NCBI GenBank assembly: GCA_016185545.1
Contig: JACPNJ010000005.1
Location: 79,013-143,012 of the forward strand
Length of the DNA: 64,000 bases
From: Candidatus Yanofskybacteria bacterium
GTDB lineage: Bacteria > Patescibacteriota > Minisyncoccia > 2-02-FULL-40-12 > IGHO2-01-FULL-4-A
Direction: 5' to 3'
Positions 7,605 to 64,000 of the stretch are shown here, in pieces. A program made the position numbers and the translations under genes. Each line of letters starts with the position of its first letter. The stretch's first letter is position 1. The notes under the pieces were generated by a model. That model was not told the DNA's origin. It did no database searches and saw only the letters and a program-made list of their open reading frames with translations.

Positions 7605-8438
7605 TCATTTTAATATCACAAACAAACTGGAACCGAGGGAGGGGTCGAAGATGGGTTTAGCGGAAACGTTTTTGAAAAGGGTACTGGATGAGGATTCAAC
7701 CTTGATGATTTTGGCAACGAGCAGGGCCTCCGGCAAACCGTCAAGACCACTGGTAACAATTGTTTCGCCCTCTCTAATTTCATCGCTATTAGCCACAAGG
7801 TTAAGCACCAGATTATTTTGTAATTCGCCTTTTGTTTCAACCAGTGTTCGCGATTCCTGGACTTGTCCAGCATCAGTTTGGGACGGCTCAAACTGATGCT
7901 GGACAAGTCCGCTAATTTTAATACGTGGATCATCAATGAGCAAAATCAAAGCCGAATCATCAAAAACCTGCTCCGTGATGCCAACCAAAATATTGCCTGT
8001 CGCTATAACTGGCATCTTTTTTTCAATGCCGTTCTTTACGCCTTTGTTAATTAATGCCGTTGAGGACAAAGCGCTTCTTTGTATATTAAAAATCCGCGCC
8101 AATAATAACGGCGAATCCAGCCGTTTCGCTACCCCTAGTTCTTCTCTCAAAAAATTATTTTCGCGTTTTAAACTTTCAAGTTCCGCTAATTGCCCGCGTA
8201 AAATATTATTCTCCTTATAAAATCTGGCATTATCATCAATAATCATTTTGGTTTTTAAATATCCGGAAGAATACCTTGAAAAATTTAGCAGATTGTCCGT
8301 CAAAAAAATACCAGGTTTTTCTGTAATTTTATAGACAAAATTCTGCAGAAAATTATCCGTTAAATAATTATTAAAAAAAACAACCCCAGCGACAATTAAA
8401 ATGACGGCCAGATAGTTTTTATAAAAATTACGAGTCAC
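7605..8438 (-). CDS. mreC: rod shape-determining protein MreC
   Basis: 277 aa; N-terminal TM segment, coiled coil (LRGQLAELESLKRENNFLREEL), C-terminal beta domain; downstream of mreB. Confidence 0.75.
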   Translation of the reverse strand: MTRNFYKNYLAVILIVAGVVFFNNYLTDNFLQNFVYKITEKPGIFLTDNLLNFSRYSSGYLKTKMIIDDNARFYKENNILRGQLAELESLKRENNFLREELGVAKRLDSPLLLARIFNIQRSALSSTALINKGVKNGIEKKMPVIATGNILVGITEQVFDDSALILLIDDPRIKISGLVQHQFEPSQTDAGQVQESRTLVETKGELQNNLVLNLVANSDEIREGETIVTSGLDGLPEALLVAKIIKVESSSSTLFKNVSAKPIFDPSLGSSLFVILK

Positions 8439-8473: not shown

Positions 8474-9523
8474 TCAGATATAGGCTTCTTTGGCCGTCCA
8501 TGCCAAAACATCTTTGAGTGAATCAAGATGTTCCAGAACCATGCCACAACCGCGCACAACTGCCGTCATTGGATCATCTACAATTTTTACCGGGAGTTTG
8601 GATTCGTGGCTGATTAACTCATCAAATCCGCGCAGTAAACTGCCGCCGCCGGCAAGAAAAATGCTACGATTCAGTAAATCAGCAATAAGTTCGGGCGGTG
8701 TCTCCTCAATTGTGCTTTTTATGGCTAAAACGATGCTTCTTATAGAACGATGCATTGCTTTACGCACTTCTTCCGAAGTTATAGTCAACTCCTTAGGCAA
8801 TCCCGTAAGAAGATCGCGGCCACGTACCTGAATTGTCAATTCTTCTTCAAGCGGATAGGCGGAACCGATTGCTAATTTGATATTTTCCGCAGTAGCATCG
8901 CCAATGAGTATATTATGCTCCTCTCTCATAAATTGGCTGATATCGCTGGTTAATTTATCACCGGCAATTCTTAAAGAACGTGAAGCAACAACGCCACCCA
9001 TAGAGATAACCGCAACATCAGTCGTACCCCCGCCGATATCAACAATCAGATTAGCCGCGGCATCCTGAACAGGTAATCTGGCGCCTATCGCCGCCGCCAT
9101 TGGTTCTTCAATTAGAAAAACCTTGCGCGCTCCGGCATTATAAGCTGCATCCTCCACCGCTCTTTTTTCCACTTCGGTAACACTTGCTGGCACGCCTATT
9201 ACCACGCGCGGACGCGGCATCAAAGAAAATGACTTTTCCTGTGCTCTGTCTATAAAGTATTTGAGCATCTGTTCTGTTACTTCAAAATCGGAAACTACAC
9301 CGGCTATCAGCGGTTTTGAAACCATTATGTAGCCGGGTGTGCGGCCAACCATTTTGCGGGCATCTTGGCCAATGGCAAGAATTTGTCCGGTTTTTTGATT
9401 TATCGCGACAATTGACGGCTCATTTATGATAATCCCCTTGCCGCGAATATAAACCAGGGTATTGGCAGTACCCAAATCAATGCCGATATCCTTTGACCAA
9501 AAATTAAAAAATCGTTTTAACAT
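8474..9523 (-). CDS. mreB: rod shape-determining protein MreB (actin homolog)
   Basis: 349 aa; MLKRFFNFWSKDIGIDLGTANTLVY...DIGGGTTD; actin/Hsp70 fold motifs. Confidence 0.92.
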   Translation of the reverse strand: MLKRFFNFWSKDIGIDLGTANTLVYIRGKGIIINEPSIVAINQKTGQILAIGQDARKMVGRTPGYIMVSKPLIAGVVSDFEVTEQMLKYFIDRAQEKSFSLMPRPRVVIGVPASVTEVEKRAVEDAAYNAGARKVFLIEEPMAAAIGARLPVQDAAANLIVDIGGGTTDVAVISMGGVVASRSLRIAGDKLTSDISQFMREEHNILIGDATAENIKLAIGSAYPLEEELTIQVRGRDLLTGLPKELTITSEEVRKAMHRSIRSIVLAIKSTIEETPPELIADLLNRSIFLAGGGSLLRGFDELISHESKLPVKIVDDPMTAVVRGCGMVLEHLDSLKDVLAWTAKEAYI

Positions 9524-28894: not shown

Positions 28895-30316
28895 CTATAA
28901 TTCGAATGATTCGCCCTCAACTGGCGCTACGGCTTCAATGCCATATTTTTCGTGAATTAGATTAGCGAGGGTGCGGGCGGATTCGTCTTCGCCTTGAACG
29001 ACAAAGACTTTTTTTAGATTGCCCGCACCGCCGCCTTGAACTGTTGAACCGCCAACCCACTTGATGAGACTTAGCTGATCGGCATGGGCGGAATAAGCTG
29101 ACAGGTTTTCTATATGGCACTTGACTGGCACCGTTTGGCCCATGATTCTGACTTCTTTTTCGCCCCTTTGAATGCGCCGGCCCAAACTGCCGTCAACTTG
29201 GTAACCGACAAAAAGTATCGTGCTGTTTGTATCCGGTAAATAACGCATTTCGTGATGCAAAATCCTGCCACCTTGGCTCATGCCTGAACCGGCAATTATA
29301 ATCTTAGGCGCCGGCACGTTATTTATCGCTTTTGATTCTTCGACGGCGGTTGTGAGTTTTAAACCCGGGAAATTAAATACGTCGTCACCGGAACCGATCA
29401 AATACGCCGTCTCTTTATTAAAATATTCGCGGTGTTTTTGGTATACAGCGGTCATTTTATTGGCGAGGGGGCTGTCAACAAACACCGGTACCCGTGGAAT
29501 TTTATTTTCATTGAAAAGCCCGTTTAATTCATGCAGAAGCTCTTGCGTGCGCTCAACGGCAAATGAGGGTATCATCAGCACCCCGCTTCGCTTGATTGTG
29601 TCCTCAATTACCGAAATCAGCTTACTTCTTCTCTCCTTTCTGCCCTCATGCACTCGATCACCATAAGCCGATTCAATAACAATATAGTCGGCATTTTTAA
29701 TTTTTTCGGTCGGTCGCAGAAGCGGCGTCGGCGGATTGCCGAGGTCGCCAGAGAAGAAAATCTTTCTGGTACCAGAAAGATTTTCTTCTCTGGCTTGGTA
29801 ATTGGTAATTGGTAATTGGTAATTGGTTCGCCATTGTATTTCTACAATTGCCGAACCCAGTATATGACCTGCGTCATGGAAAATTGCAGTAATCCCCTCC
29901 AGTTCAATCGGTTCATCATAAAAAACCCCCTCCACAAGCGACATCAGCCCGTCCAGATCCTCCTGTATAAATAATGGCTCATGTCCCATCTCTTTAGCTT
30001 CATCCAAAATCTTATTCAAATTATCAGGAAGTGCGACGGCCATCAGGTCGCGGGTGGCAGTGGTCGTGTAAACTTTGCCGCGGAAACCGTCTTTGTAAAG
30101 TTTCGGCAAACGCCCGATGTGGTCAATATGGCTGTGGGTAATAAAAACATATTTAATCTCTGCGGGATTATATTTGAATTGACCATAATTCAATTCTTCG
30201 GCATATCTTGTGCCTTGATTCAAGCCGCAATCTACGAGTATTTTGGTATGGCCGTGTTCGAGTAGATAATTAGCTCCGGTAACGGTACGAGCACCACCAT
30301 AAAAAGTTATTTTCAT
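28895..30316 (-). CDS. RNase J-like beta-CASP metallo-beta-lactamase ribonuclease
   Basis: HSHIDHIG motif; MBL plus beta-CASP plus RNA-specificity-like C-terminus; contains a heptamer array. Confidence 0.8.
   Translation of the reverse strand: MKITFYGGARTVTGANYLLEHGHTKILVDCGLNQGTRYAEELNYGQFKYNPAEIKYVFITHSHIDHIGRLPKLYKDGFRGKVYTTTATRDLMAVALPDNLNKILDEAKEMGHEPLFIQEDLDGLMSLVEGVFYDEPIELEGITAIFHDAGHILGSAIVEIQWRTNYQLPITNYQAREENLSGTRKIFFSGDLGNPPTPLLRPTEKIKNADYIVIESAYGDRVHEGRKERRSKLISVIEDTIKRSGVLMIPSFAVERTQELLHELNGLFNENKIPRVPVFVDSPLANKMTAVYQKHREYFNKETAYLIGSGDDVFNFPGLKLTTAVEESKAINNVPAPKIIIAGSGMSQGGRILHHEMRYLPDTNSTILFVGYQVDGSLGRRIQRGEKEVRIMGQTVPVKCHIENLSAYSAHADQLSLIKWVGGSTVQGGGAGNLKKVFVVQGEDESARTLANLIHEKYGIEAVAPVEGESFEL
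29797..29827. repeat. (GGTAATT)x4 heptamer array inside the RNase J-like gene
   Basis: ggtaattggtaattggtaattggtaattgg encoding ..NYQLPITNYQ.. Confidence 0.85.
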
Positions 30317-30368
30317 TTTACAATGCTTGATAATGTTTTTGTATTATTTTCCGTGACACCTTTGCTTT

Positions 30369-30400
30369 TTCAATAACCAACCGCAGGCCTGCCCGCCGAA
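30369..30400 (-). promoter_or_regulatory. 5' leader hairpin cccgcc-TGCGCCGAGGCTTC-ggcggg upstream of the RNase J-like gene
   Basis: Same loop and opposing stem arms as the uvrB copy at 42553. Confidence 0.4.
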
Positions 30401-30564
30401 GCCTCGGCGCAGGCGGGAATTTTCTTTGTTTTAAGCTATTTTCCGTGCTGTGCATCCGTCAATTTGGTCAGATTATAGAAAATGTCATGTGGACAAAAAT
30501 TTGACAAATTATTACATGCATGCTAACCTTACGACAGAATCAACCAGTTTCTAAGGAGGTGGCT

Positions 30565-30762: not shown

Positions 30763-30922
30763 CACGGGCTTTTTCTATCCCTATGACCCATGACACTTTT
30801 TACACTTTTAATACTGTCATACAAGGATTTTCTTTATTTCCCGCCCGAGGCGGGTCCGCCTCCGGCGGATAAGCCATTTCCCCACCTATGATATGGGCGG
30901 AATTGCCAAAATATAGAAAATA

Positions 30923-31558
30923 TCATGCAGTTTTTTTGCTTATTGGTTTCATTTCAAAACTGATATACCTCTCACCGAAAACTTCTTTTAACCTTTCTCC
31001 TAATCTCTTATCGCCTTCAGGATATTTACCTTCCTTAGCATGATTAGCCCCAACAATCAGTAAGTATTTTCCCGGCGTCTGTTCATAGCGTCGCTGAAAA
31101 TTGATAAACATATCTTCGTCTCGGGATTCTCCTCTTAGAAAATATCTTTCATTTTTGCGTTTTGATGTTTCTTGATACTCCCCTTCTTTCGTTTTTGACG
31201 AATCGAAACTGATAACTCCTTTTCCGATCTCCTTTACTTTATCGAAGATTTTTAGTAAATCTCTTATACTTTTACCTTCCTTCTCTGCTCCAGCGAAGAA
31301 ATCTTCCAATGTTTTATCCACCTCGCCACTGGCAAGATATTTATCAATCGCTTCTTGATAATCAACCGGCAACTCAACAAATATCTGATTTATCTGGGAA
31401 CCAAACCTATCCAGAAAATTCAAAATCGTTTCGCCGTGCTTACCATGAAATGTCTCTCCTAAAACAACTACATCTCGCCTCTCAAACAAATTTTCGGGAA
31501 ATTGTTCGGCGTTTTCGAGATTAAATTGTTCTCTTTTTATTCTCTCCATGTTTTTCAT
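30923..31558 (-). CDS. hypothetical protein
   Basis: 211 aa; no recognisable domain; preceded by the conserved leader element. Confidence 0.5.
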   Translation of the reverse strand: MKNMERIKREQFNLENAEQFPENLFERRDVVVLGETFHGKHGETILNFLDRFGSQINQIFVELPVDYQEAIDKYLASGEVDKTLEDFFAGAEKEGKSIRDLLKIFDKVKEIGKGVISFDSSKTKEGEYQETSKRKNERYFLRGESRDEDMFINFQRRYEQTPGKYLLIVGANHAKEGKYPEGDKRLGERLKEVFGERYISFEMKPISKKTA

Positions 31559-31567: not shown

Positions 31568-31676
31568 CCCATGACACTTCTTATCCTCCTTCGCTACCTC
31601 CTTCGCCAAGGCTTCGGAAGGTCAAAGAAAGCTACGGAAGGATTGCGAGATGTCACTTACCGTGACATCTCTTATA
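31568..31676 (-). promoter_or_regulatory. ~110-nt conserved 5' leader element (copy 1), with 10-bp hairpin gagatgtcac/gtgacatctc and GCCAAGGCTTCG-loop hairpin
   Basis: About 95% identical to 60697..60805 in the same orientation; both abut start codons of minus-strand genes. Confidence 0.6.
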
Positions 31677-31706: not shown

Positions 31707-32540
31707 TTATAAAAAACTTGCGACCAAATACCCGACTATACTCATCAACGCTATCGGCGGTAAGGCCGCCATGGGACGGCGGGTTGCTTGATTAGTAAAT
31801 ATTAGGTGCATCAAAAGCAGTCCGAGAATTGAAAATAAAGCAACCGTAACCGCAGACAATAGGGAAATCCTGACTAATGACGCGGAAAGCAAAAGCGGAA
31901 AAATTACATCGCCGGAACCAAGAATCATAAAACCCCCACCGGGAATAACACTAGCAATTTTGTGCCTGACGGTATGGCCCAATTCTGGGATAACAAATCC
32001 GAATATCGCCCTCGACTCTATCATGGCCTGGGCAAGTTTGATCATATGGCCTGTCTTATAAACAGAGATAATGTCATAAAAAGAAAATAAAACAAGGATA
32101 TAAATGACTGTCATCGGCAAAAGTGAAATGCCTAAAACGGCCCCGATGCCGGCAATTGTCAAAATCATTGCTGAGTTTTGGGTTATTATATTTTGAAATA
32201 GCCAAAAAACGGTTACAATCGCTATCGCCACAAAGATGGATGCCAATGAATTTAACCAAATCCCCAAAATTGCTTGGGTTCCGGAAAAAATTAAAAAAGA
32301 AAGGAAAAATTTAAAAAACCATGAGCCGACGCGCTTAAATTTGGCCACAACCAGAAAAAATACAACGAGAATAACCGCGAGAATTAAAAAGCCGCTGACA
32401 GAATAATCGCCCCAGCCCACCGACTCTGCCAAAATCGTTTCCGGCAAAAATTTATAAGCCGCGTAAATCCCCAGCACTTGCGTCAACCCAAAAGGCACCA
32501 GTACTCTCAAAAAATTGTTGAATTTAAACTTGATGGACAT
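31707..32540 (-). CDS. presenilin / signal-peptide-peptidase-like intramembrane aspartyl protease (A22-like)
   Basis: About 8 TM helices; FYDIISVY (YD), LGSGD (GxGD) and AALPP (PAL-like) in the expected order. Confidence 0.5.
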   Translation of the reverse strand: MSIKFKFNNFLRVLVPFGLTQVLGIYAAYKFLPETILAESVGWGDYSVSGFLILAVILVVFFLVVAKFKRVGSWFFKFFLSFLIFSGTQAILGIWLNSLASIFVAIAIVTVFWLFQNIITQNSAMILTIAGIGAVLGISLLPMTVIYILVLFSFYDIISVYKTGHMIKLAQAMIESRAIFGFVIPELGHTVRHKIASVIPGGGFMILGSGDVIFPLLLSASLVRISLLSAVTVALFSILGLLLMHLIFTNQATRRPMAALPPIALMSIVGYLVASFL

Positions 32541-33732: not shown

Positions 33733-35007
33733 TTATGAAAGCAATTCCAAAACTATTTCTTTATCTGACCATGAAATCTTTTTCCCTCCAGCCACAGCCA
33801 TTAAATTCTCGGACCCCTTGCCGGTTATTACGACTATATCATCAACTTGAGCTAGAACTAAGGCTTTTCTGATTGCCTCTTTGCGGTCTAGAATTTTGGT
33901 ATAGTTTTCAGTTTGCGAGAACCCCGAAGCAATTTGTTCCAAAATTGCCTCGGGGTTCTCGTCATAAGGGTCCTCGTTCGTCAAAATCACCTCATTGCAA
34001 TATTTGGCCGCGATCTTGCCAAACTCAGGCCGCTTCCATTTGTCCCGACCGCCGCCGGCTGCCCCCAATACACAGATGAGTTTATTACGAGGTTCAACCT
34101 CAACAGAAATATGGGGTTGGTTTCTTAGGGTTTTGTAAACCAGTTCCAATGAATCCGGCGTGTGAGCATAATCAATAATTACATTAAAACCTTTCGGCGC
34201 ATGAATGATTTCCATTCTGCCTGGTATTGATTTGATTGAATTTAGCGACGCTACCGCTTTATTCATATCAAGATTATAAGCATGCGCTACGGCCAATGCC
34301 GCCAAGGCGTTATATTCGTTAAAATCCCCCAGCAATTTTAAGTTAAGTTTTTCATTTTTCGTTTTTAGCTTTTCACTTGTTATCATCCCCCATTTTTTGC
34401 CATATGTTACTTTGTGTTGCGCCGTAAAATTGGCAAATTTTTCAAAATACGGATCGTCAATGTTAAGTACGTGGATATTGCCAGTTTTCAGAAAAAGTTT
34501 CTGCTTGGCGGCCATATAATTTTCAAATGAGCCATGGCTTTCCAAATGTTCACGGTGCAAATTGGTAAAAACGGCACAATCAATTTTGACACCAGCCAGA
34601 CGATTTTGGACAATACCCTCTGAAGTGGCTTCGAGCACCACGTATCGACAACCGGCTTTTTTTGCCTGATATAAAAATTTCTGCAACTTGAGTCGCCCCG
34701 GCAAAGTCATTTTTAGCGTATTGGGCCATGTCCGTTCTTTTATCTTAAACCCGAGCGACCCCACTGCCGCCACCGACAGCCCCTGCTCCTCAAAAATCTT
34801 GCTTATCATATAAACCGTCGTTGATTTGCCCTTAGTCCCGGTAACTGCTATCACCCTCATCGCCTGCGACGGAAAACCATAAATCGCTGCCCCCAGCATT
34901 ACCAGCCCCCAATGATAAACCGGCTGTGCCAATTTAAAAATCCGCCGCGGTAACACGGCGCGCCCCAAACCTAGCAATTTGTTTAGTAATCGGTTCTCTT
35001 GAAACAC
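33733..35007 (-). CDS. Mur ligase family protein (MurE/MurF-like)
   Basis: VIAVTGTKGKSTT P-loop; Mur ligase middle and C-terminal domains. Confidence 0.6.
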   Translation of the reverse strand: MFQENRLLNKLLGLGRAVLPRRIFKLAQPVYHWGLVMLGAAIYGFPSQAMRVIAVTGTKGKSTTVYMISKIFEEQGLSVAAVGSLGFKIKERTWPNTLKMTLPGRLKLQKFLYQAKKAGCRYVVLEATSEGIVQNRLAGVKIDCAVFTNLHREHLESHGSFENYMAAKQKLFLKTGNIHVLNIDDPYFEKFANFTAQHKVTYGKKWGMITSEKLKTKNEKLNLKLLGDFNEYNALAALAVAHAYNLDMNKAVASLNSIKSIPGRMEIIHAPKGFNVIIDYAHTPDSLELVYKTLRNQPHISVEVEPRNKLICVLGAAGGGRDKWKRPEFGKIAAKYCNEVILTNEDPYDENPEAILEQIASGFSQTENYTKILDRKEAIRKALVLAQVDDIVVITGKGSENLMAVAGGKKISWSDKEIVLELLS

Positions 35008-35100: not shown

Positions 35101-37233
35101 ATGAATCCGGATCAAAAAGTATTCACCCTGGAAGAGTTGGAATCGGGTCAATATGATTCAAGGCTTTATCAGGAAATGGATTTCGGCGAACTGCTTAAAT
35201 TCGCTCAGGCAAATCCACATGTTTCTTACTCGGCTTATCAGAAGATGTTGCAAACAATTTTAAGCTATGGCTTTGAGAAATATAAATTTACCAGGCGCGA
35301 TTTTATCCATTATCCGTTTTTCGACGACCCGTTTAATAACGGACGGGATGCCGTATTCGGTCTTGATAAACAAATGATGAGATTGGCAGAGGTATTTAAA
35401 GCGGGTGCGGCCCGTTTGGGCCAAGAAAGGCGTATTATATTGCTTCATGGCCCAGTCGGATCTTCCAAAACAACTATTGCAAGACTCCTGCGGAATGGAC
35501 TTCAAAAATTCACCCAAACCAATGAAGGGCAGCTGTTTACTTATTCATGGGTCCCACGCGACGACGAAGATAAAGAAATTATGGGCTTGGCTAAAAGTTC
35601 TCTCAAAGAATTGCGCTGCCCGGTGCATGAAGATCCGCTGTTGCTTTTACCGGAAGACACGCGAATAAAAATTATGTCGGCTATGAATAATACTTCCATC
35701 TACGACCGCAAAGAATCCAAAGAGCGTCCTCGACGGCCTGAAGAACTGGTATTTTTGGAAGGTGAAATATGCCCCCTATGCCGGTTGGTTTATAAAGAGC
35801 TGCTGCGCAAACAAAAAGGTGACTGGAAAAAAGTTGTAAGCGATTACTTGAAGGTGCGCCGGCTTATTTTTTCAGAAGTTGACCGCATTGGTATCGGCTC
35901 GTTCAGACCAAAAGACGAGAAAAACCAGGATTCCACTGAACTTTCTGGCGATATCAACTATCGTAAAATCGCCGAATTCGGTTCCGAATCGGATCCGCGG
36001 GCATTTAATTTTGACGGGGAATTCCAAGTTTCCAATCGCGGCTTCTTCTATGTGGAAGAGGCATTCAAACTGGATAAGGCGTTTCTTTATGATTTCCTTG
36101 GCGCTACCCAGGAGCACAGGATTAAGCCCAAGCGCTTTCCTGAAATGTATGTTGATTGCGTCTATATGGGCGGCACCAATAATCCGGAATATGAAAAGCT
36201 ACGCGACGATGAAACAATGGAGGCGTTCCGGGACCGCACTACCAGAATTGATGTGCCTTATGTTCTAAAACTCGCCCAAGAAGAACGGATTTATAAAAAG
36301 GTGTATAAAGAAGTTCCCGGGCAAAAACATATCGCGCCGCATACGATAGAAATGGCATCTCTCTGGGCTCTGCTTACAAGGGTGAAAAAATCTAATAAAC
36401 CGCAAACGCAGGGCATTTCCCTGCGCAATAAAATCAGATTGTATGACGGCAAAACAGTTTCAGGCTTTACCGAGGAACATATTCACGACCTGATGTTTGA
36501 AAATCCCGACGAGGGAATGCAGGGAATCTCGCCGCGCTATATTCAAGACCAGATAGGCAATGCAATTGTTGAGGATACGGATGTGCACTGCATTTCCTGG
36601 TTCACGGTTAAAAAAGAACTGGAGGAAGGGCTTAATTCCCACTCCCTGTTAAAGGGCAGCCAACGGCTTCAGGATTATAAAAATCTACTGGCGGAAGTGG
36701 AAGAAGAATTTACCGAAACGGTTAAGGGCGAAGTTCAGGAAGCGGTTGCCGGTGACGAAAAAGATGTTGATATTTTATTCAATAAATATATTGAGAATGT
36801 AATTGCTTATATAAACAAGGAAAAAATTGAGGATCACCGAGGCGAACTCGTAGAGCCGGATGAGCAATTGATGAGCGAGATTGAAGAGAAAGCCGGCGTA
36901 TCCGCAAGCGGAAAAGACGAATACCGGGCAAGGCTGGTCCAGTCAATGGGAACTTTTGCCAGACGCAAAAGATCGTTTGACTACAAGTCCGACGAGCAAC
37001 TCTGCCGCGGCTTGAAATTAAAACTTTTTGAAGACAGAAAAGACACCATCAACTTGTCCACTTTGCATACGCGGGTGATAGACCCGGAAGAGCAGGAAAA
37101 AATTGAAGTGATAAAGAAGAGGATGGTTGAACGGTTTGGTTATTGCCAGATTTGCGCAACCTTGGTAATGAACCACGTGGCTTCCATCTGGGCCAGCGGA
37201 ACCAAAGCCAAACAGCTGGCTCTCAATTCATAA
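35101..37233 (+). CDS. prkA: PrkA-family serine protein kinase (AAA+ plus kinase-like)
   Basis: 710 aa; LLHGPVGSSKTTIARLL Walker A; colinear with YeaG/PrkA. Confidence 0.88.
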   Translation: MNPDQKVFTLEELESGQYDSRLYQEMDFGELLKFAQANPHVSYSAYQKMLQTILSYGFEKYKFTRRDFIHYPFFDDPFNNGRDAVFGLDKQMMRLAEVFKAGAARLGQERRIILLHGPVGSSKTTIARLLRNGLQKFTQTNEGQLFTYSWVPRDDEDKEIMGLAKSSLKELRCPVHEDPLLLLPEDTRIKIMSAMNNTSIYDRKESKERPRRPEELVFLEGEICPLCRLVYKELLRKQKGDWKKVVSDYLKVRRLIFSEVDRIGIGSFRPKDEKNQDSTELSGDINYRKIAEFGSESDPRAFNFDGEFQVSNRGFFYVEEAFKLDKAFLYDFLGATQEHRIKPKRFPEMYVDCVYMGGTNNPEYEKLRDDETMEAFRDRTTRIDVPYVLKLAQEERIYKKVYKEVPGQKHIAPHTIEMASLWALLTRVKKSNKPQTQGISLRNKIRLYDGKTVSGFTEEHIHDLMFENPDEGMQGISPRYIQDQIGNAIVEDTDVHCISWFTVKKELEEGLNSHSLLKGSQRLQDYKNLLAEVEEEFTETVKGEVQEAVAGDEKDVDILFNKYIENVIAYINKEKIEDHRGELVEPDEQLMSEIEEKAGVSASGKDEYRARLVQSMGTFARRKRSFDYKSDEQLCRGLKLKLFEDRKDTINLSTLHTRVIDPEEQEKIEVIKKRMVERFGYCQICATLVMNHVASIWASGTKAKQLALNS

Positions 37234-37319
37234 GCGGTTACCGCCGCTTTTTTTATTTGATTTTTCTCTATCTTGAGTTATTATTCCAAAGAAGCACTTT
37301 GACAATAAAAGGAGCGGCT

Positions 37320-38576
37320 ATGGCTGGCAGAATAAACCAAGATGAAAAAGAGTTTCTGGATATTATAAGAGGCAAACTTCGCAAAGACCTCTTGAAATTC
37401 ATACAAAAGGGCCAGATTACTATTGTGGGACCAGGACACGGAATTGCCATACCTCTGGAAACCATTCAAATTCCACGCATACACTTCGCTCCCATTCCTC
37501 CAGATGCCGAGATAAAAGAGGGCGAAAATGGGAACAGCGAAGATATCGGTTCTGATATCGGCGTGGGCAAGGGACCGGGAAAGCCGGGAACAGATTTAGG
37601 ACCGGTTGAACCGGATGAAGACGATGAAAATGGCGAAGGTAAAGAAGGTGGTGAAAGGCAGGCCGGATTGGGCCGCGGTCCTGAAATTGTTGAAATTGAA
37701 ATTCCGTCGGAAGAGTTTTATGAACTTTTTAAAGAGGTCCTTGAACTGCCCAATATTAAACCCAAGGGCGAAAGACAAATAAAAACCGAATCCTGGAAAT
37801 ATACGGATATCAGATCGGCGGGTCCGGAATCGCTCCGCCACAAAAAACGCACCTACAAGCAGGCATTAAAAAGGACGATATCCGAAGGCCAATACAATCC
37901 GGATGAGCCGGTGATAATTCCAATCAGCCAAGACAAACGTTACCGCGTCCCAGAACTAGTAACCAAACCGAAGAACAACGCCGTGGTCTTTAACATGATG
38001 GATGTTTCTGGATCAATGTCCAGGGACGACAGAGAGTTGGTCAGATATTTCTGCGCTTTGTGCGAATTTTGGCTTTCGTGCAACTATGACGGCGTTGAGA
38101 TTGTCTGGATAATCCATGACGGCGAAGCGGATAGAGTAACCAGAGAAGCATTTTTATCTACCCAGCGTGGCGGCGGCACGGTTATTTCAACCGCCCATAA
38201 AAAAATGCTTGAGATTATGGAAGAAGAATATCCGCCGGAACAGTGGAATGTTTACCCATTTTATTTTTCAGATGGTTTCAATTTCGGTAATTTTGACGGC
38301 ATAGACGACAATGAAATCTGCGCTCATCTTATTGGTGATAGAATCATCCCTTTTGTCAATCAATACTCTTATTGTGAGGTAAGCGCTCACAGATATTGGT
38401 GGCCTTCCAATGGCAAGGGCGAGCGCGACCCGAGCCAGAAATTCCATCCTGCCGGCAGTTTCGGACTTATGCTCTTGGAAAAATTCGAGGGCGAACTGCT
38501 GGTCGTATGCACCAATCTGCAGGAAATGGAAAAAGTGCCGAACACCATTAAAGATGTTTTTAAACAAGGCCGATAA
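37320..38576 (+). CDS. yhbH: YeaH/YhbH-like DUF444 protein (vWA-like)
   Basis: RBS aaaggagcggct before ATG; VVFNMMDVSGSM vWA MIDAS-like motif; classic prkA partner. Confidence 0.8.
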   Translation: MAGRINQDEKEFLDIIRGKLRKDLLKFIQKGQITIVGPGHGIAIPLETIQIPRIHFAPIPPDAEIKEGENGNSEDIGSDIGVGKGPGKPGTDLGPVEPDEDDENGEGKEGGERQAGLGRGPEIVEIEIPSEEFYELFKEVLELPNIKPKGERQIKTESWKYTDIRSAGPESLRHKKRTYKQALKRTISEGQYNPDEPVIIPISQDKRYRVPELVTKPKNNAVVFNMMDVSGSMSRDDRELVRYFCALCEFWLSCNYDGVEIVWIIHDGEADRVTREAFLSTQRGGGTVISTAHKKMLEIMEEEYPPEQWNVYPFYFSDGFNFGNFDGIDDNEICAHLIGDRIIPFVNQYSYCEVSAHRYWWPSNGKGERDPSQKFHPAGSFGLMLLEKFEGELLVVCTNLQEMEKVPNTIKDVFKQGR

Positions 38577-38585
38577 GGAGGGCTT

Positions 38586-40793: not shown

Positions 40794-40833
40794 GATTGCT
40801 TATTAGCGCGACACCTTCGCGCTTTTTTATTGG

Positions 40834-42452: not shown

Positions 42453-42457
42453 GGAAA

Positions 42458-42488
42458 GAATCTAGAATCTAGAATCTAGAAACTAGAA
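42458..42488. repeat. (GAATCTA)x3 + GAAACTA heptamer array abutting the ruvA start
   Basis: gaatctagaatctagaatctagaaactagaatt. Confidence 0.85.
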
Positions 42489-42552
42489 TTAAGAGTTAAT
42501 TTAATCATAAGACGACTGGCTGTTTTTTGCAAAAGAATGTTTAAGTTATCCT

Positions 42553-42580
42553 CAAAATTCCCGCCTACGCCAAGGCTTCG
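42553..42580 (+). promoter_or_regulatory. 5' leader hairpin cccgcc-TACGCCAAGGCTTC-ggcggg 25 nt upstream of uvrB
   Basis: Same loop as 30369 and as the leader elements at 31596 and 60729. Confidence 0.4.
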
Positions 42581-42604
42581 GCGGGCAAGCAAACCATAAC
42601 ATAA

Positions 42605-48203: not shown

Positions 48204-48239
48204 CAGTTCCCTTATTTGTATAATCGGCAGATAATGTCA

Positions 48240-59696: not shown

Positions 59697-60251
59697 TTAA
59701 TCGTCAGAATAAATTATTTTTCCGGCTTCAAAGATGTGGAATGCGCCGGTTTCTTCGGAAACCGTGTACACAGTTGTATTTTGAAAAATATACGATGAGA
59801 CAATGGCAAAGAGATGCCTGGAGTGGACTTTTTGTCGGAATCCAAATTGTTCGGATAAGTCTTTGAAACGGCCAGGATTGATTTTATCGGCAACCGTGCG
59901 CGGCCTTAAGCCTTCAAGGATTATGCCGGAATGCGCGAACTTGCCAGTCGCATCTATTAAGATCGCGCCATCAAAACCAACTGTGGATTCGACTTCACGA
60001 TACCATTCAGCGTGGTTTTCAATATCATTGATATTTATGCGGTATGCGACAAAAATATCCTGCGTGGCATCGGAAATGTCTGTATATTCTTGCCACTTAT
60101 CTTGCCAGCCAAGTATTATAAAAAGACCAAAATTTTTCTGATGGGCCATTAAATTCAAAACTAGCTCAGCTGTTTTCATTTTCAAGGAAATCGGCAAGAC
60201 AATTTCCGATTTCTTGAAAATCTCGATTAATTCAAAAATCTTTTTTTCCAT
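59697..60251 (-). CDS. DAC (diadenylate cyclase) domain protein, soluble, divergent (RHR to RHL)
   Basis: GFDGAILID (DGA motif), HSRHLFA (RHR region), VSEETGAFHIF (SEETG) in canonical order; no TM helices. Confidence 0.55.
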   Translation of the reverse strand: MEKKIFELIEIFKKSEIVLPISLKMKTAELVLNLMAHQKNFGLFIILGWQDKWQEYTDISDATQDIFVAYRININDIENHAEWYREVESTVGFDGAILIDATGKFAHSGIILEGLRPRTVADKINPGRFKDLSEQFGFRQKVHSRHLFAIVSSYIFQNTTVYTVSEETGAFHIFEAGKIIYSDD

Positions 60252-60699
60252 TATTTATTTTTTTAGAACGGTCGGAAACTAACCAGGAGCTTGATTGTAT
60301 CTTGCCACCACGGCCAATGTTGAAAATTATTTTGCAGCCAAGTTTGTTACAAACAGCAGCTTCTGGAATATCATTTGCGGTTCTATCTCCCCCATTGGCA
60401 AAAATGTGGGGTCGGATTTTTTTAAGTTCGGCGCATACGCTCATATCCGCCGGCTCCGCCGGATGACTGGTCAAAATTACCTGATCAACTCCCCTTATTG
60501 TTTCCAGTATTTCCTTGCGTTCTTTTTCAGACATAAACACATAACCCTTTTTCTTTCTGAGCCAGTTATCGTTATTCAAAATAACAACCAATTTGTCGCC
60601 AAGTTTCCGGGCTTCCTGAAAAAGCCGGACATGGCCGACATGAATTGGGTCCCACCCGCCACTTACCGCTACTATTATTTTTTTCTTTTTATTTCCCAT
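60232..60699 (-). CDS. cytidylyl/adenylyltransferase-family (HIGH motif) nucleotidyltransferase
   Basis: VAVSGGWDPIHVGHVRL; 155 aa; 20-nt overlap with the DAC gene. Confidence 0.75.
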   Translation of the reverse strand: MGNKKKKIIVAVSGGWDPIHVGHVRLFQEARKLGDKLVVILNNDNWLRKKKGYVFMSEKERKEILETIRGVDQVILTSHPAEPADMSVCAELKKIRPHIFANGGDRTANDIPEAAVCNKLGCKIIFNIGRGGKIQSSSWLVSDRSKKINNGKKDF

Positions 60700-60805
60700 G
60701 ACACTTTTTATCCTCCTTCGCTACCTCCTTCGCCAAGGCTTCGGAAGGTCAAAGAAAGCTACGGAAGGATTGCGAGATGTCACTTCCCGTGACACTTCTA
60801 CTTTT
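60697..60805 (-). promoter_or_regulatory. conserved 5' leader element (copy 2); supplies SD aggagga and the ATG of the nucleotidyltransferase gene
   Basis: About 95% identical to 31568..31676. Confidence 0.6.
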
Positions 60806-60973
60806 TCAATAACCAGCCGCAAGAGTTTTTCTTTATTTTGAGCTGTTTTTAAAACCGCGTACCCACTGAAATAGCCATAAAATAGAAAATGTCATGCGGG
60901 CTGCCTATTGATTCTTTTCTGTTATTTTGCCATTATACTACCAGGTCGTTAAATCTTTACAGGAGGCGAAACA

Positions 60974-61492: not shown

Positions 61493-64000
61493 TTATCTCC
61501 CATGACATCTTTTATATTTTTTACCTGACCCACAAAAACATGGGGCATTCCTTCCTATTCTCGCATGGTCGAGAATGTTTGATGGCCGACTTGATTCTTG
61601 CTCCATTTGTTTTGAGACAGCTGACCGACTAACTGCCAAATCCTCACGTTTTTCTTCAATTGCAACAGTTTTTGGCTGTTGGACAAATCCAACCTTAAAA
61701 ATTAAACCCGCCACTTGCGCTCCAATGGCCTCCTGCAGTTGAGTGAACATTTTTTGGCCTTCTATTTTATATTCAACTAACGGATCGCGCTGGCCGTAAG
61801 CACGCAGGCGCACCGAGTCGCGAAGATACTCCATCTGTTCAAGATGATCAACCCACAGCTCGTCTATCACGCGTAGTAAAACCATTTTCTCAATATGTCT
61901 CATTGATTCCACGCCTGTTTGCTGTTCACGCTGAATATAAACTTCATCAATCAAACCATGCAGAAATTCGGATAATTTGCCTGGCCCATTCGATGAGTTC
62001 AGGTCAAGCTCTTGTGGTTTTGCGATTTCGTTTAATTTAGCGTGCAAATCGCCAACCATCGGCATCAGAGTTTTAACACTCTCGGCTATTTCTTCGGTAT
62101 TATATCCCCCCGTTTCGCTTAAAGCGTGGAATTGCATAATTTTATCAATATGTTCGTGAATATAATTATTTATTTTGTCCTTGACGCCTTCTCCCCCCAG
62201 TATTTCCTTGCGCAAACTGTAAATCGCGGTTCTGTGGCGATTCATTACATCGTCATATTCTAGGACGTATTTTCGGATATCAAAGTTGTTGCCTTCAATT
62301 TTGGATTGGGCTTGCTCTATGGCGCGGGAAACGAAACGGTTTTCAATAACATCGTCTTCGCTTACGCCAAGCCGATCCATCAAGTTTTTAAGACGATCGC
62401 CGCCGAATATGCGTACCAGCTCATCTTCGGTGGATACAAAAAACTGCGAAGAGCCCGTGTCGCCCTGCCGGCCGGAACGTCCACGCAATTGATTATCTAT
62501 GCGCCTTGCTTCGTGCCTCTCCGTCCCAATCACATGTAAACCTCCTAATTCCTTTACTCTTTTATTTTCTTCCTCCCAATTTTTATATTCTTCATTTAAA
62601 AGTTTATCTTCTTCAATTTTAAATTTTGCCTGCCCCGTAGGGTCGCGAAGCGACTCCTTCGGGGAATTTTGAATTTTGAATTTGCTAGGCGCATGCCCGC
62701 CGAGCATGATATCAACACCCCTGCCGGCCATATTGGTTGCCACCGTAACAGCGCCGAGCCGACCGGCTTGAGCAATAATTTCACCCTCTTGTTCGTGGTT
62801 TTTGGCATTTAAAACTTTGTGCGGTATACCTTCACGGTTGAGATGCACCGATAAAAGTTCATTTTTAATAATCGCCGCCGTACCAACAAGTACCGGTTGA
62901 CCTTTAAGATGCCGCCCCTTGATTTCGGCAACAATTGCTCTGAATTTACCCGCTTCTGTTTTATATATACGATCGGGTAAATCAGCACGTATCATTTGTT
63001 TGTTGGTGGGAATAGTAACGACATCCAGTTTGTAAACCTTGTGAAACTCTTCAGCTGATGTCTGCGCCGTGCCGGTCATACCGGTAAGTTTTTTATACAA
63101 GCGAAAATAATTTTGGAAAGTAATCGTGGCATAAGTTCGGGATTCTTTCTGGACATATACCCCCTCTTTGGCTTCAATCGCTTGATGCAATCCCTCCGAC
63201 CATCGCCGCCCCGGCATTAAACGGCCGGTAAATTCATCTACTATGATTACTTCACCGTCTTTTACAACGTAATCCTTGTCGCGGTGGAAAAGAATTTGCG
63301 CTTTCAACGCCTGTTCAAGATGGTGAACATAACGAGTACCGCCTTCCTCGTAGATGTTTTTGAGATTCAGCACGCTTTCAACTTTTTCAATGCCTTTTTC
63401 GGTAATTGACACGGCTTTCAATTTTTCATCAACATTATAGTCTTCGTTTTCGTGGAGACGTGGAACAATTTTGGCAAAAGTTTCGTAAAGCTTAGTTGAA
63501 TCAGAATCCGGTGCAGAAATAATTAGCGGGGTTCTGGCTTCATCTATTAAAATGGAGTCAATTTCGTCAACAATGGCATAATTATGCCCTCGGGTCTGCG
63601 CAACTTGCCCCAATTCATATGCCATGTTGTCCCGTAAATAATCAAAACCGAATTCGTTATTGGTCCCATAAGTAATGTCGGCTTCGTATGCTTCTCGCCT
63701 AGTAACCGGACGCAGAAATTCATGAACAACCCTGAATGCCCCTGTTTCATCGCGTATTTCGTCTAATTTTCGTGATTTATCATTTTCTTTTTCACTTTTG
63801 AATTTGAAATTATCATTTTGAATTTTGAATTTTGAATTTTGAATTTCGCTATGCAGTGGATCATAAACGTAACTCATTTCATGGTTCAAACATCCGACAT
63901 TCATTCCGAGAAGATGGTATATCTGCCCCATCCATGCCGCATCGCGCCTTGAGAGATAATCGTTCACGGTAACTATGTGGACCCCATTAGAAGTAGCCGC
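61493..64000 (-). CDS. secA: preprotein translocase ATPase SecA (N-terminus beyond window edge)
   Basis: DEAD motor, GGLHVIGTERHE, C-terminal zinc finger CFCGSGKKYKRCHG; ORF open to position 64000. Confidence 0.92.
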   Translation of the reverse strand, partial: AATSNGVHIVTVNDYLSRRDAAWMGQIYHLLGMNVGCLNHEMSYVYDPLHSEIQNSKFKIQNDNFKFKSEKENDKSRKLDEIRDETGAFRVVHEFLRPVTRREAYEADITYGTNNEFGFDYLRDNMAYELGQVAQTRGHNYAIVDEIDSILIDEARTPLIISAPDSDSTKLYETFAKIVPRLHENEDYNVDEKLKAVSITEKGIEKVESVLNLKNIYEEGGTRYVHHLEQALKAQILFHRDKDYVVKDGEVIIVDEFTGRLMPGRRWSEGLHQAIEAKEGVYVQKESRTYATITFQNYFRLYKKLTGMTGTAQTSAEEFHKVYKLDVVTIPTNKQMIRADLPDRIYKTEAGKFRAIVAEIKGRHLKGQPVLVGTAAIIKNELLSVHLNREGIPHKVLNAKNHEQEGEIIAQAGRLGAVTVATNMAGRGVDIMLGGHAPSKFKIQNSPKESLRDPTGQAKFKIEEDKLLNEEYKNWEEENKRVKELGGLHVIGTERHEARRIDNQLRGRSGRQGDTGSSQFFVSTEDELVRIFGGDRLKNLMDRLGVSEDDVIENRFVSRAIEQAQSKIEGNNFDIRKYVLEYDDVMNRHRTAIYSLRKEILGGEGVKDKINNYIHEHIDKIMQFHALSETGGYNTEEIAESVKTLMPMVGDLHAKLNEIAKPQELDLNSSNGPGKLSEFLHGLIDEVYIQREQQTGVESMRHIEKMVLLRVIDELWVDHLEQMEYLRDSVRLRAYGQRDPLVEYKIEGQKMFTQLQEAIGAQVAGLIFKVGFVQQPKTVAIEEKREDLAVSRSAVSKQMEQESSRPSNILDHARIGRNAPCFCGSGKKYKRCHGR
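62624..62690. repeat. family B palindromic element inserted in frame in the secA variable linker (encodes NSPKESLRDPTGQAK)
   Basis: Direct sequence identity to 59420..59452. Confidence 0.8.
63815..63847. repeat. (ATTTTGA)x4 heptamer array in the secA C-terminal linker
   Basis: Encodes KFKIQNSKFKIQN. Confidence 0.8.

Follow-up and report, generated by a model that had tools for sequence, protein, structure and literature searches.

Two nearly identical sequences of about 100 nt, each lying at the start of a minus-strand gene, raise the question of whether this locus carries a regulatory leader shared by two genes or a repeat that came to lie there by another route. To address this question, we analysed the surrounding 64,000 nt (the window) together with related loci in other genomes.

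Two copies of one unit and their folds

The preliminary description had put the pair at about 95% identity, which was borne out: the copies are 98% identical across 100 nt (blastn E 1e-45), and a wider alignment covers 130 nt at 89% identity. The copies and their hairpins are as follows.

31568..31667, minus strand: unit copy A, 98% identical to copy B
60695..60794, minus strand: unit copy B, 98% identical to copy A
31647..31671, minus strand: hairpin 1 of copy A, GAGATGTCAC-GGTAA-GTGACATCTC, perfect 10-bp stem, -15.6 kcal/mol
60774..60798, minus strand: hairpin 1 of copy B, GAAGTGTCAC-GGGAA-GTGACATCTC, imperfect stem, left arm …KCHGK-stop
31583..31643, minus strand: hairpin 2 of copy A, 61 nt, a nested pair of REP-like palindromes
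60710..60770, minus strand: hairpin 2 of copy B, same sequence as hairpin 2 of copy A
31597..31621, minus strand: inner palindrome of copy A, contains the core 22-mer, covariance model 40.7 bits
60724..60748, minus strand: inner palindrome of copy B, covariance model match

The identity starts and ends abruptly, exactly within TGTCAYGG cores, beyond which the two flanks show no more than distant relatedness; on these grounds a simple segmental duplication of a promoter region was rejected. The unit ends, GTGACATCTC and GAAGTGTCAT, form weak 10-nt inverted repeats (7/10 match), and target-site duplication is inconsistent, with GGGAA on both sides of the possible element in copy B and GGTAA versus GGGGC in copy A. 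Units A and B are direct repeats with 29 kb between them (31.7-60.7 kb), a segment whose content is housekeeping (uvrB, ruvA, secDF, a tRNA). The full unit is known in these two copies only, which are too similar for a structure test on the whole unit, and the unit architecture pattern had no match in JGI metagenomes.

Copy A sits between a signal-peptide-peptidase gene (31707..32540), whose stop is 30 nt away, and a downstream 211-aa ORF (30923..31558). The orthologue-conserved start of this ORF, MERIKREQ, is 19 nt past the copy (NCBI call, 208 aa); an exact-protein look-up of the 211-aa and 208-aa products returned no record. Copy B overlaps the start of a cytidylyltransferase-like gene (60232..60699; Pfam PF01467; the nucleotidyltransferase gene below), whose ATG at 60697-60699 falls within the unit. 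The earlier statement that the element abuts both start codons therefore holds for copy B, which contains the annotated ATG, but not for copy A, which ends 10 nt short of the first ATG. Two independent Logan contigs with the nucleotidyltransferase gene break off within the unit, at distances of 24 and 38 nt before the ATG. TATAAT-like boxes are present upstream (31707-31712; module M).

On the mRNA strand, the minimum-energy fold is the 61-nt hairpin 2 (-23.4 kcal/mol) rather than the 5-bp second hairpin first described. The latter had been quoted from the plus strand; the minus-strand mRNA reads ccuuc[cgaagccuuggc]gaagg, and its loop is therefore complementary to the loops of the uvrB and RNase J-like leaders. 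Hairpin 2 pairs two CCUUCC-like tracts with two GAAGGAGG tracts, both GGAGG tracts being paired, and in copy A it consists of an outer palindrome (ATCCTTCCGTAGC…GCGAAGGAGGAT) with an inner one (CCTTCCGAAGCCTTGGCGAAGGAGG) placed in its apex. Homologous nested pairs occur at L111, L113 and L123 with compensatory changes in the outer stem, including those that separate hairpin 2 from L113. Simpler, un-nested homologues of the unit are found at L094 and L127; the L127 homologue is co-oriented with its downstream gene and also provides an ATG, and the L094 homologue has no co-oriented gene downstream. Hairpin 2 of copy A is more stable in the mRNA sense than in antisense (-15.8 kcal/mol), and the sense folds outperformed shuffles with z of -4.7 (A) and -2.4 (B), compared to -2.75 and -0.96 for antisense; the sense fold of the unit depends on G-U pairs.

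The perfect 10-bp stem reported for hairpin 1 is present in copy A, but copy B forms only a 7-bp core (-9.5 kcal/mol) because its left arm lies partly beyond the repeat; at L094, hairpin 1 is conserved with another spacer. On the plus strand, a T-rich tail comes after hairpin 1, which received a terminator-like call in both copies, and the unit has two CCTCC tracts on this strand. Neither hairpin has a T run behind it on the gene strand, and the terminator scan called no sense-strand terminator. The promoter and terminator scans revealed no enrichment compared to shuffles and no plus-strand promoter-like site upstream of the unit. Rfam gave no match to the element at gathering score (best E-values 1.1-7.9, searched up to E 10); its single match in the window was a tRNA outside the unit.

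Sites resembling the secA terminus

Both unit ends are copies, as degenerate direct repeats, of the last secA codons, which specify the SEC-C motif (AARTGYCAYGG…stop; …KKCHGx-stop). The motif ARRTGTCAYGG occurs seven times in the window, each time on the minus strand, versus 0.2 expected. The relevant sites and modules are listed here.

61493..61524, minus strand: real secA 3' end, …GSGKKYKRCHGR-stop, SEC-C zinc-finger motif
31569..31579, minus strand: site at the 3' end of copy A, AAG AAG TGT CAT GGG GCG TGA = KKCHGA-stop
60696..60706, minus strand: site at the 3' end of copy B, AAA AAG TGT CAT GGG AAA TAA = KKCHGK-stop
30351..30361, minus strand: site ending module M1, with the beta-CASP RNase gene about 30 nt downstream
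30788..30798, minus strand: site in module M3, KCKKCHGS-stop, just downstream of the 211-aa ORF
30348-30492: module M1, holds a family hairpin (filled)
60784..60899, minus strand: module M2, CATGACATTTTCTAT … TGCGGCTGGTTATTGAAAAAGTAGAAGTGTCACGG, directly upstream of copy B, without a family hairpin
30787-30928: module M3, paralogous to M2

The secA end at 61493..61524 is the apparent source of the repeated site. In hairpin 1 of copy A, the left arm and loop (AGA TGT CAC GGT AAG TGA) read as secA-like terminal codons (…KKYKRCHGK-stop), the right arm is the left arm copied in inverse, and agreement with the real secA end (61500-61524) reaches 22 of 25 nt. The 3' site of copy A matches the real secA end in L097/L098, where …KKFKKCHGA-stop is followed by 10 nt and the ATG of the orthologue; at the 3' site of copy B, the nucleotidyltransferase ATG sits within TGTCATGG. 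M2 is paralogous to M1 as well as to M3 (M2 versus M1, 67% over 73 nt and 87% over 38 nt), and the 87% identity over 38 nt links the M1 site region to 60784-60821. Since such sites lie on either side of it, the 211-aa ORF is bracketed by secA-terminus-like sites, and its orthologue in L145-L147 is likewise bracketed. A peptide function of the mini-ORFs (MCKKYKRCHGK, MGREI) was rejected, as they are too short and the ORFs are not conserved. Sequence and synteny suggest that the sites are relics of secA ends; the end of a mobile element merely resembling SEC-C codons would look alike.

The two downstream genes had been called unrelated, yet they share a history, each lying directly after secA in some related Patescibacteria. 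The nucleotidyltransferase orthologue follows secA in L089 and L092, and in L090 and L091 its ATG is overlapped by the real secA end, AAAAAGTGCCATGGAAAATAA; for the 211-aa orthologue, the distance from secA to the start is 10 nt in L097/L098 and about 1 kb in L094. The unit is missing upstream of the nucleotidyltransferase orthologues (L089-L092) and of the 211-aa orthologues (L094, L096, L097, L145-L147), and the orthologous position in L145-L147 holds a different 190-nt insert between two sites. At 38 loci with a SecA relative, the first 3 kb downstream contained the motif 17 times on the secA strand and never on the other strand, and 84 kb upstream at these loci contained none. Displaced secA ends are a common feature of the region behind secA in this lineage. 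The inserts between secA-end copies comprise a cytidine deaminase gene (here), small ORFs and about 100-190 nt of non-coding DNA, and some of those between real and displaced ends are a nested hairpin pair homologous to hairpin 2.

A palindrome family inside and outside the unit

The covariance model detected four strong family members in the 64-kb window, namely the inner palindromes of both units and the following two hairpins.

42558..42587, minus strand: family hairpin in the ruvA-uvrB divergent spacer, stem CCCGCC/GGCGGG, covariance model 43.7 bits
30390..30419, plus strand: family hairpin inside M1, stem CCCGCC/GGCGGG, 38.6 bits

The family hairpin carries a conserved 14-nt apex, G(A/T)AGC(C/T)TT(G/A)GCG(A/T/G)A, on a covarying stem of 5-7 bp, giving a unit of about 33 nt. 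The 12-mer GCCAAGGCTTCG is exact on the plus strand at 31605, 42569 and 60732, with about 0.008 exact matches expected by chance, and recurs with one mismatch on the minus strand at 30397-30408. The loop had been thought the same before uvrB and the RNase J-like gene; these hairpins do belong to one family, but the loops there are complementary and oppositely oriented relative to the gene. The apex at 42558..42587 is GAAGCCTTGGCGTA on the minus strand, antisense to uvrB, and that at 30390..30419 is GAAGCCTCGGCGCA on the plus strand, antisense to the RNase gene, so that the motif in two of the four window sites is antisense relative to the other two. M1 and M2 form an internal filled-versus-empty pair for the family hairpin.

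The conserved loop on a covarying stem, already remarked on in the preliminary description, was confirmed. The 18 distinct members have 26 double-sided changes and pairing in 96.9% of cells, and their covariation score is 0.561 compared to 0.205 when shuffled (0/500 reach it) and 0.09-0.15 when slid. Of the 17 extra members found by a loop-only search, 16 have a stem. As the covariation does not depend on orientation, it is no proof of an RNA role.

The core 22-mer was found at 86 exact sites in other genomes, with unrelated flanks and up to four copies per genome. Among the 80 loci with listed titles, the hosts represent at least nine phyla, including Patescibacteria, Elusimicrobiota, Proteobacteria, Omnitrophota, Verrucomicrobiota, Bacteroidota, Planctomycetota and Hydrogenedentota. 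The flank consensus is cTTGY…AGGRy, position -1 pairs with +4 in 76 of the 86 copies, and G(T/A)AG is seen only at the stem-apex junction. While 59 of the 86 copies lie outside long ORFs, 27 lie inside them (12 sense, 15 antisense), and the intergenic copies include 17 co-oriented with both neighbours versus 10 anti-oriented. The motif is thus present both inside genes and antisense, the pattern that the preliminary description had itself set against a leader.

The in-gene copies have preferred reading frames, PSEALAKE and SFAKASEG. Compared to solved homologues, the in-frame inserts amount to 12 aa in MAP and 25 aa in UvrB, and family copies also lie inside IleRS, MetRS, DnaG, PheT and PBP2. 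A sister hairpin is inserted in the SecA and a 174-aa ORF of the window and is missing from their orthologues. There is one head-to-head doublet (DnaG, L072); otherwise, pairs are nested in the same orientation. Searches with the 33-mer or 22-mer core gave only chance-level partial matches in plasmids and phages, and no match in IMG/VR or in E. coli genomes; a fragment of a universal RNA is disfavoured because of the latter result. The literature on the loop sequence consisted of PCR primers only.

Origin of the unit and comparison with known systems

Taken together, the evidence tips towards the unit being a non-coding composite mini-cassette at secA-terminus-like sites and not a dedicated riboregulator, which is close to the repeated cassette that the preliminary description had offered as its alternative. 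A short element would have been inserted or recombined at a secA-terminus-like site with duplication of that site, members of the palindrome family would later have entered the apical loop of the element, and a cassette of about 90 nt would recently have been copied between two such sites, now direct repeats around 29 kb. The palindromes are probably mobile as single-stranded DNA hairpins, with the apex recognised by a putative trans-acting enzyme; no transposase, integrase or RAYT was found among the 30 window ORFs scanned with Pfam. Incidentally, the unit would form the 5' untranslated region of two genes and add GGAGG tracts, with copy B retaining the ancestral ATG, and weaker translation initiation or altered mRNA stability would be the expected effect of its stable hairpins. 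The unit may even have a selected role in expression, as the stronger sense fold and the co-orientation of both copies and the L127 homologue with the gene would allow.

A cis-regulatory 5' leader, in which hairpin 2 sequesters the Shine-Dalgarno sequence and a loop-binding protein or small RNA co-regulates the two genes with uvrB and the RNase, would account for the stable, G-U-reliant sense fold that exceeds both shuffles and antisense, for the paired GGAGG tracts, for the TATAAT-like boxes upstream and for the covarying stem. We nevertheless consider it improbable: the uvrB and RNase transcripts carry a complementary, non-identical loop, the hairpin has no orientation bias and lies in coding regions in 27/86 cases, orthologues have no unit upstream, no co-oriented gene follows the L094 homologue, and no Rfam family matched. 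Identity of 98% with abrupt edges is typical of a recent copy, and paralogous riboregulators are usually much more diverged than that. The protein-binding leader for a DNA-repair and RNA-turnover regulon, as originally proposed, conflicts with the copies in ORFs, their two orientations and the orthologues that have no unit. Read on the plus strand, the unit could be an antisense small RNA gene whose transcript is ended by hairpin 1 and presents a CCUCC-rich anti-Shine-Dalgarno mimic, as the terminator-like T-rich tail in both copies and the two CCTCC tracts would suggest; this is very hard to credit, with no promoter-like site upstream on that strand, a tail that is the complement of Lys-rich secA-like codons, and a weak antisense fold.

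Site-specific recombination is an unlikely, though not far-fetched, source of the unit. It would have a recombinase bind the TGTCAY half-sites, which are inverted in hairpin 1 and in direct orientation at the 3' end; the units would then be either attL/attR-like direct repeats, left by translocation or integration of the segment from 31.7 to 60.7 kb, or the boundaries of an integron-like cassette array at the secA terminus. The high identity bounded exactly by TGTCAYGG cores in direct repeats that bracket 29 kb fits this explanation, as do a hairpin 1 shaped like a core site (8-10-bp inverted arms, 5-nt spacer) and conserved in L094 with another spacer, the different cassettes between duplicated sites in several genomes, and the strong strand-specific site excess downstream of secA. 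However, no recombinase gene was found in a non-exhaustive scan of 30 window ORFs, the 29-kb segment holds housekeeping genes and not island functions, the integron attC core consensus is absent by inspection, and staggered-cut insertion could also yield repeated cores of 9-23 nt. An assembly artefact, with a repeat collapsed or chimerically joined, might be suspected in a metagenome-assembled genome, the more so as short-read contigs end inside the unit, but it is barely conceivable: the unit-gene junction is identical in two independent runs, homologous units or hairpins occur in many independent assemblies, including that of the isolate Bradyrhizobium australiense, and there are in-frame copies inside conserved proteins.

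The composite mini-cassette thus calls for caution in annotation, as a near-identical, well-folding sequence before two genes can be a repeat scar and not a regulator. The exact palindrome core in distant phyla, tolerated in MAP, UvrB, IleRS, MetRS, DnaG and SecA, points to horizontal spread of a hairpin-mobilising activity or to very strong shared constraint. In Patescibacteria, insertions seem to recur at the secA terminus, which could give a handle on the acquisition and shuffling of small genes in small genomes; if the hairpins set translation or mRNA stability, they would offer cheap expression variation in reduced genomes. As a more speculative proposal, which we hold as a possibility on the doubtful side, the 14-nt apex on its covarying stem could be the recognition module of a hairpin-DNA mobilisation system and, jointly, the SEC-C codons of secA could be a dedicated attachment site. 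If so, the mobilisation system would have carried a single, identical element of about 33 nt into at least nine phyla, routinely in-frame in essential genes, and small cassettes (the unit, whole small genes) would integrate at the secA end of Patescibacteria with secA regenerated, an integron-like platform without a known integrase.

We found no publication linking REP, RPE or MITE elements with Patescibacteria, and the unit resembles several known systems in part. Shine-Dalgarno-sequestering leaders (ROSE and fourU thermometers, translational operators) likewise have a 5' UTR hairpin that pairs GGAGG with CCUUCC-like tracts near the start codon, but the unit is not conserved upstream of orthologues, matches no family, and owes its pairing to a palindromic repeat found in any context. 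The GTAG- and CGTC-tagged palindromic repeats are REP/REPIN-type elements (Di Nocera et al. 2013, PMC3733652). The family shares with these an imperfect palindrome, about 30 nt long and flanked by an asymmetric tag, copies in some genes, including repair genes such as uvrB, and stems that differ by sub-family, and it may also resemble them in a dispersed, mostly intergenic distribution and in its dimers and clusters. It differs in its tag (cTTGY…AGGRy, not GTAG/CGTC), in a conserved part that is the 14-nt apex and not the stem, and in one identical 22-mer across at least nine phyla; REPIN-RAYT systems are described in a preprint (bioRxiv 10.1101/2022.05.22.493013) as mostly inherited vertically. 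It also differs in that no RAYT gene occurs among the 30 scanned window ORFs and that family copies nest in each other's apex.

RPE-1 of Rickettsia is about 100-150 nt long and is not known outside that genus. Like the Rickettsia palindromic elements (PMC3733652), the family comprises palindromes in-frame in protein genes, tolerated as extra peptide loops; its inserts, however, are about 33-36 nt (11-12 codons) and cross phylum boundaries. With MITEs, the unit has in common that it is non-coding, about 90 nt long and present in two near-identical copies, and that it gives the neighbouring gene outward-facing expression signals; its terminal inverted repeats are weak, and it has no consistent target-site duplication, is bounded by direct repeats of a gene terminus and has no known parent insertion sequence. 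In integrons, attC cores are RYYYAAC and GTTRRRY, with an intI integrase nearby. Compared to these, to dif-module arrays and to islands that target gene 3' ends (tRNA/tmRNA-type), the target here is the SEC-C codons of secA, the inserts range from about 60 nt to about 1 kb, no integrase appeared in the scanned ORFs, and the repeated core is AARTGYCAYGG, with no evident attC/dif consensus. The locus nevertheless shares with them short site copies that bracket unrelated small inserts, a target end that is regenerated while the old end is displaced downstream, and a strand-specific excess of sites.

Layout and folding of the repeated unit

Comparison of the window with itself (blastn) confirmed that the two stretches are a true repeat, with copy A (31568-31667, upstream of a 211-aa ORF) and copy B (60695-60794, at a nucleotidyltransferase gene) sharing 98% identity over 100 nt (E 1e-45). 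Under a more permissive alignment, the similarity reached 130 nt at 89%. The identity begins and ends exactly within TGTCAYGG cores. The minus strand is the sense strand for both downstream genes.

Order of the unit on the minus strand
Part 1: hairpin 1, GAGATGTCAC-GGTAA-GTGACATCTC
Part 2: GCA
Part 3: ATCCTTCCGTAGCTTTCTTTGA-CCTTCCGAAGCCTTGGCGAAGGAGG-TAGCGAAGGAGGAT
Part 4 (last): AAGAAGTGTCATGGG

Hairpin 1, previously described as perfect, is so in copy A (-15.6 kcal/mol) but imperfect in copy B (-9.5 kcal/mol), because the repeat starts within the hairpin's left arm. The unit supplies a gene start only in copy B, where the ATG of a cytidylyltransferase-like gene (PF01467) falls inside the repeat. 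In copy A, the repeat stops 10 nt short of the 211-aa ORF's first ATG and 19 nt short of the start kept in orthologues. An Rfam search of the unit gave no match, and the window's unit in its own form was not found in JGI metagenomes.

A 12-mer showed exact matches at 31605, 42569 and 60732 (about 0.008 expected by chance) and a match with one mismatch at 30397. The preliminary description had proposed a loop shared with the uvrB and RNase leaders; however, it quoted the second hairpin as read on the plus strand, not the mRNA strand. The loop on the unit mRNA is CGAAGCCUUGGC, and the other two transcripts carry its complement.

Transcript hairpins carrying the complement of the unit mRNA loop
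42560-42585: uvrB transcript
30392-30417: beta-CASP RNase transcript

Copies of the secA end

ARRTGTCAYGG occurs seven times in the window, all on the minus strand, versus 0.2 expected.

ARRTGTCAYGG sites in the window
True secA 3' end (...GSGKKYKRCHGR-stop), minus strand: SEC-C zinc-finger motif
Both ends of both unit copies, minus strand: four sites
600-nt spacer between the 211-aa ORF and the RNase gene, minus strand: two sites

In frame, the secA-like sites read MCKKYKRCHGK-stop, KKCHGA-stop, KCHGK-stop, KKCHGK-stop, KCKKCHGS-stop and CGWLLKKQRCHGK-stop. At the left end of copy A, 22/25 nt agree with the real secA end, and, judged from sequence, the unit ends appear to be copies of the secA terminus. 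Their presence is explained by synteny, since both genes are secA neighbours in relatives. The nucleotidyltransferase gene comes after secA in L089 and L092, and in L090/L091 (nucleotidyltransferase 87% identical) the end of secA reads ...KKFKKCHGK-stop, with TGCCATGG containing the transferase ATG. The 211-aa gene orthologue begins 10 nt past a secA ending ...KKFKKCHGA-stop in L097/L098 and lies ~1 kb past secA in L094. Therefore, the two genes, formerly regarded as unrelated, share a trait: each neighbours secA on its downstream side in some member of the clade, with a secA-end piece retained in front.

We fetched 46 SecA-relative loci and based counts on the 38 that include the secA stop codon. 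In the 3 kb downstream of secA (77.8 kb searched), the secA strand carried 17 matches to A[AG][AG]TG[TC]CA[TC]GG, and there were no matches on the opposite strand or in 84 kb upstream of secA in these 38 loci. The DNA separating the functional from the displaced old secA end differs among loci, and this pattern of sites points to the secA end as a recurrent insertion point.

Insert between the secA ends
L110, L111, L113, L115, L123: hairpin-rich DNA, about 60-100 nt
L089: 59-aa ORF
L094: 81-aa ORF and several more relics
Window: cytidine deaminase gene

In the closest relative (L145-L147, 88% protein identity), two secA-like sites at the position orthologous to copy A flank a different 190-nt insert, and, as in the window, the gene is followed by another site. 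Versions of the unit are present at other loci in L094 and L127, sharing the hairpin 1 arms, the TYGCAATCCT...AGGATAAAAA frame and the terminal site, with only a small 5-bp hairpin in place of the window's 61-nt hairpin 2; the L127 copy also provides an ATG, here to another gene. The SEC-C motif of SecA itself is remodelled in several relatives (L094 2880-2980; secA ends of L110, L111, L113, L115 and L123) to CPCG-AKDAEGHPI-KYKRCHGR or ...DGRPVKYKHCHGKNL, and there the canonical old end (GSGKKYKKCHGx-stop) is shifted 60-100 nt downstream.

A palindrome family with a conserved apex

The proposal of a conserved loop on a covarying stem was borne out. A loop-only search of all fetched DNA revealed 17 more family members with other stems, versus an estimated ~0.16 expected; 16/17 had a stem, and the inner pair switched in step from C:G to T:A in 15/17. 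Over 18 distinct members, 96.9% of cells paired, with 26 double-sided changes, and the covariation score was 0.561 compared to 0.205 in shuffles (0/500 reached it) and 0.09-0.15 when the partners were slid. These results define the family by a conserved 14-nt apex, G(A/T)AGC(C/T)TT(G/A)GCG(A/T/G)A, above a 5-7-bp stem that covaries freely; the uvrB and RNase hairpins (stem CCCGCC/GGCGGG) belong to it. A covariance model detected only four strong window sites (two units, uvrB, RNase) and one weak site (55957-55987).

Other palindromes insert into the apex. In window hairpin 2, an outer CCTTCCGTAGC...GCGAAGGAGG encloses a copy with the 22-mer CCTTCCGAAGCCTTGGCGAAGG; L111 and L113 carry a homologous nested pair with a compensatorily changed outer stem (CCGTCC...GGCGGA), and in L038 that apex position is occupied by a 63-nt insert. 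The RNase-upstream repeat module M1 (30348-30492) holds a family hairpin, which its paralogue M2 (60784-60899) lacks at that place. A 45-codon minus-strand upstream ORF (30317-30455, MHSTENSLKQRKFPPAPRLRRAGLRLVIEKAKVSRKIIQKHYQAL), which may be spurious, traverses this hairpin and ends 1 nt before the RNase ATG.

The 22-mer has 86 exact sites in a species-representative genome collection, versus an estimated ~0.07 expected.

Hosts of the 22-mer among the 80 loci with record titles listed, from 86 sites
Patescibacteria: 38
Gammaproteobacteria MAGs: 14
Elusimicrobiota: 12
Alphaproteobacteria, including the isolate Bradyrhizobium australiense: 4
Omnitrophota: 2
Verrucomicrobiota: 2
Bacteroidota: 2
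Planctomycetota: 1
Hydrogenedentota: 1
Unclassified: 4

These copies have only ~33 nt in common (cTTGY-core-AGGRy), with unrelated flanks, and the first flanking position on each side pairs in 76/86. Long ORFs contain 27/86 copies (12 sense, 15 antisense), mostly reading PSEALAKE or SFAKASEG, and intergenic copies favoured neither orientation (17 ran with both neighbours, 10 were anti-oriented). The host ORFs are real housekeeping genes (MAP, UvrB, IleRS, MetRS, DnaG, PheT, PBP2), and comparison with solved structures places at the hairpin region a clean insert of 12 residues in MAP and an insert of 25 residues in UvrB. In a Saccharibacteria DnaG (L072 4700-4760), two family hairpins lie head-to-head as a REPIN-like doublet, translated ...PSEALAKEGKPSSAEATDGQA... 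between conserved primase motifs.

Further palindromes and repeats were observed in the window. SecA and a 174-aa ORF each carry an inserted sister hairpin (TCCCCGAAGGAGTCGCTTCGCGACCCTACGGGGCAAGC), which both orthologues lack in L089 and L092. A 55-nt repeat (59410-59464 / 62622-62676, 98% identical) is in-frame in the same two genes (...NSPKESLRDPTGQA...) and absent from orthologues; its inner stem-loop, GTCGC-GAA-GCGAC, includes GCGAAGC, which as DNA folds into a very stable mini-hairpin. A/T-phased tandem repeats (TTTTGAA)n in the secA coding region (63796-63846, 62664-62683) read as KFKIQNSKFKIQN, and comparable tracts border hairpin inserts as well as many intergenic regions (22383, 32595, 49958). 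A perfect 48-nt palindrome (29747-29794; 24-nt arms, no spacer), in-frame in the beta-CASP RNase gene and encoding ...AREENLSGTRKIFFSG..., is one more palindromic insert in coding DNA.

Arms of 146 nt (7450-7595 / 9580-9725, 99% complementary) holding GC-rich hairpins (CCCCGAGCGTAGCGAGGGGCGTAGCG) flank the mreB-mreC pair (8474..9523, 7605..8438), and the segment 7450-9725 around these cell-shape genes could be invertible or mobile. Inverted repeats of 138 nt (48116-48253 / 55862-55999, 77% complementary; also 44961-44997 / 55513-55549) enclose 7.6 kb with a TrwB/TraG-like ATPase, a sigma-like protein and secDF; each 138-nt arm has a hairpin with stem GAAAAC/GTTTTC, one with a family-like apex (GAAGCTTTAGCTGA) and the other with GAGCCAATAGGCGA. 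A separate palindromic family (TAGAGGCTCAACCTCGT...GGAGGTTGAGCCTCTA) has tandem and inverted intergenic copies at 11453-11539, 15407-15477, 34082-34101 and 41759-41778. The nearly all-minus-strand window contains a plus-strand gene block (35101-46559: prkA, DUF444, spoVR, uvrB, SPFH protein, tRNA), which also holds minus-strand femAB-like and ruvA genes (40.8-42.5 kb), and a perfect 34-nt palindrome follows uvrB (44764-44797).

Origin of the unit and related elements

The unit combines duplicates of the secA terminus with nested REP-like palindromes; these parts are also found separately, in either orientation and within genes, and the unit is not conserved before orthologous genes. We infer that a short element entered secA-terminus-like sites, duplicating the site, and that palindromes next nested within it. 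A ~90-nt cassette would recently have been copied between two such sites; the copies now stand as direct repeats around a 29-kb segment (31.7-60.7 kb), which holds ordinary genes (uvrB, ruvA, secDF, the prkA operon, tRNA). Reasoning from REP elements and their transposases (PMC3733652), we consider it most likely that the palindromes move as apex-recognised single-stranded DNA hairpins; no apex-recognising or mobilising enzyme was found among 30 window ORFs scanned. As a consequence of the nested-palindrome unit upstream, the 5' region of both genes has two GGAGG tracts locked in a hairpin of -23.4 kcal/mol, which by this predicted fold would be expected to lower or modulate translation.

The regulon leader originally suggested was not supported, failing tests of orientation, orthology and family match. 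There is nonetheless a small chance that the unit is a genuine regulatory leader for these two genes, as its sense-strand fold is the stronger and its copies are co-oriented with them, although the same three failures count against this. An att-like recombination site would also fit the cassette pattern, the inverted half-sites in hairpin 1 and the direct repeats flanking the 29-kb segment, but no recombinase was found among the 30 window ORFs scanned. It is unlikely that the unit is an antisense small RNA, and an assembly artefact is likewise improbable.

The palindrome family and its nested unit come closest to two known kinds, REP/REPIN elements and Rickettsia palindromic elements, each of which has some copies lying in-frame within genes (PMC3733652). 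Compared to these, the present family has a different tag (cTTGY), conserves its apex and not its stem, nests one copy within another and keeps an identical core across phyla, and its unit is associated with duplicated secA termini.
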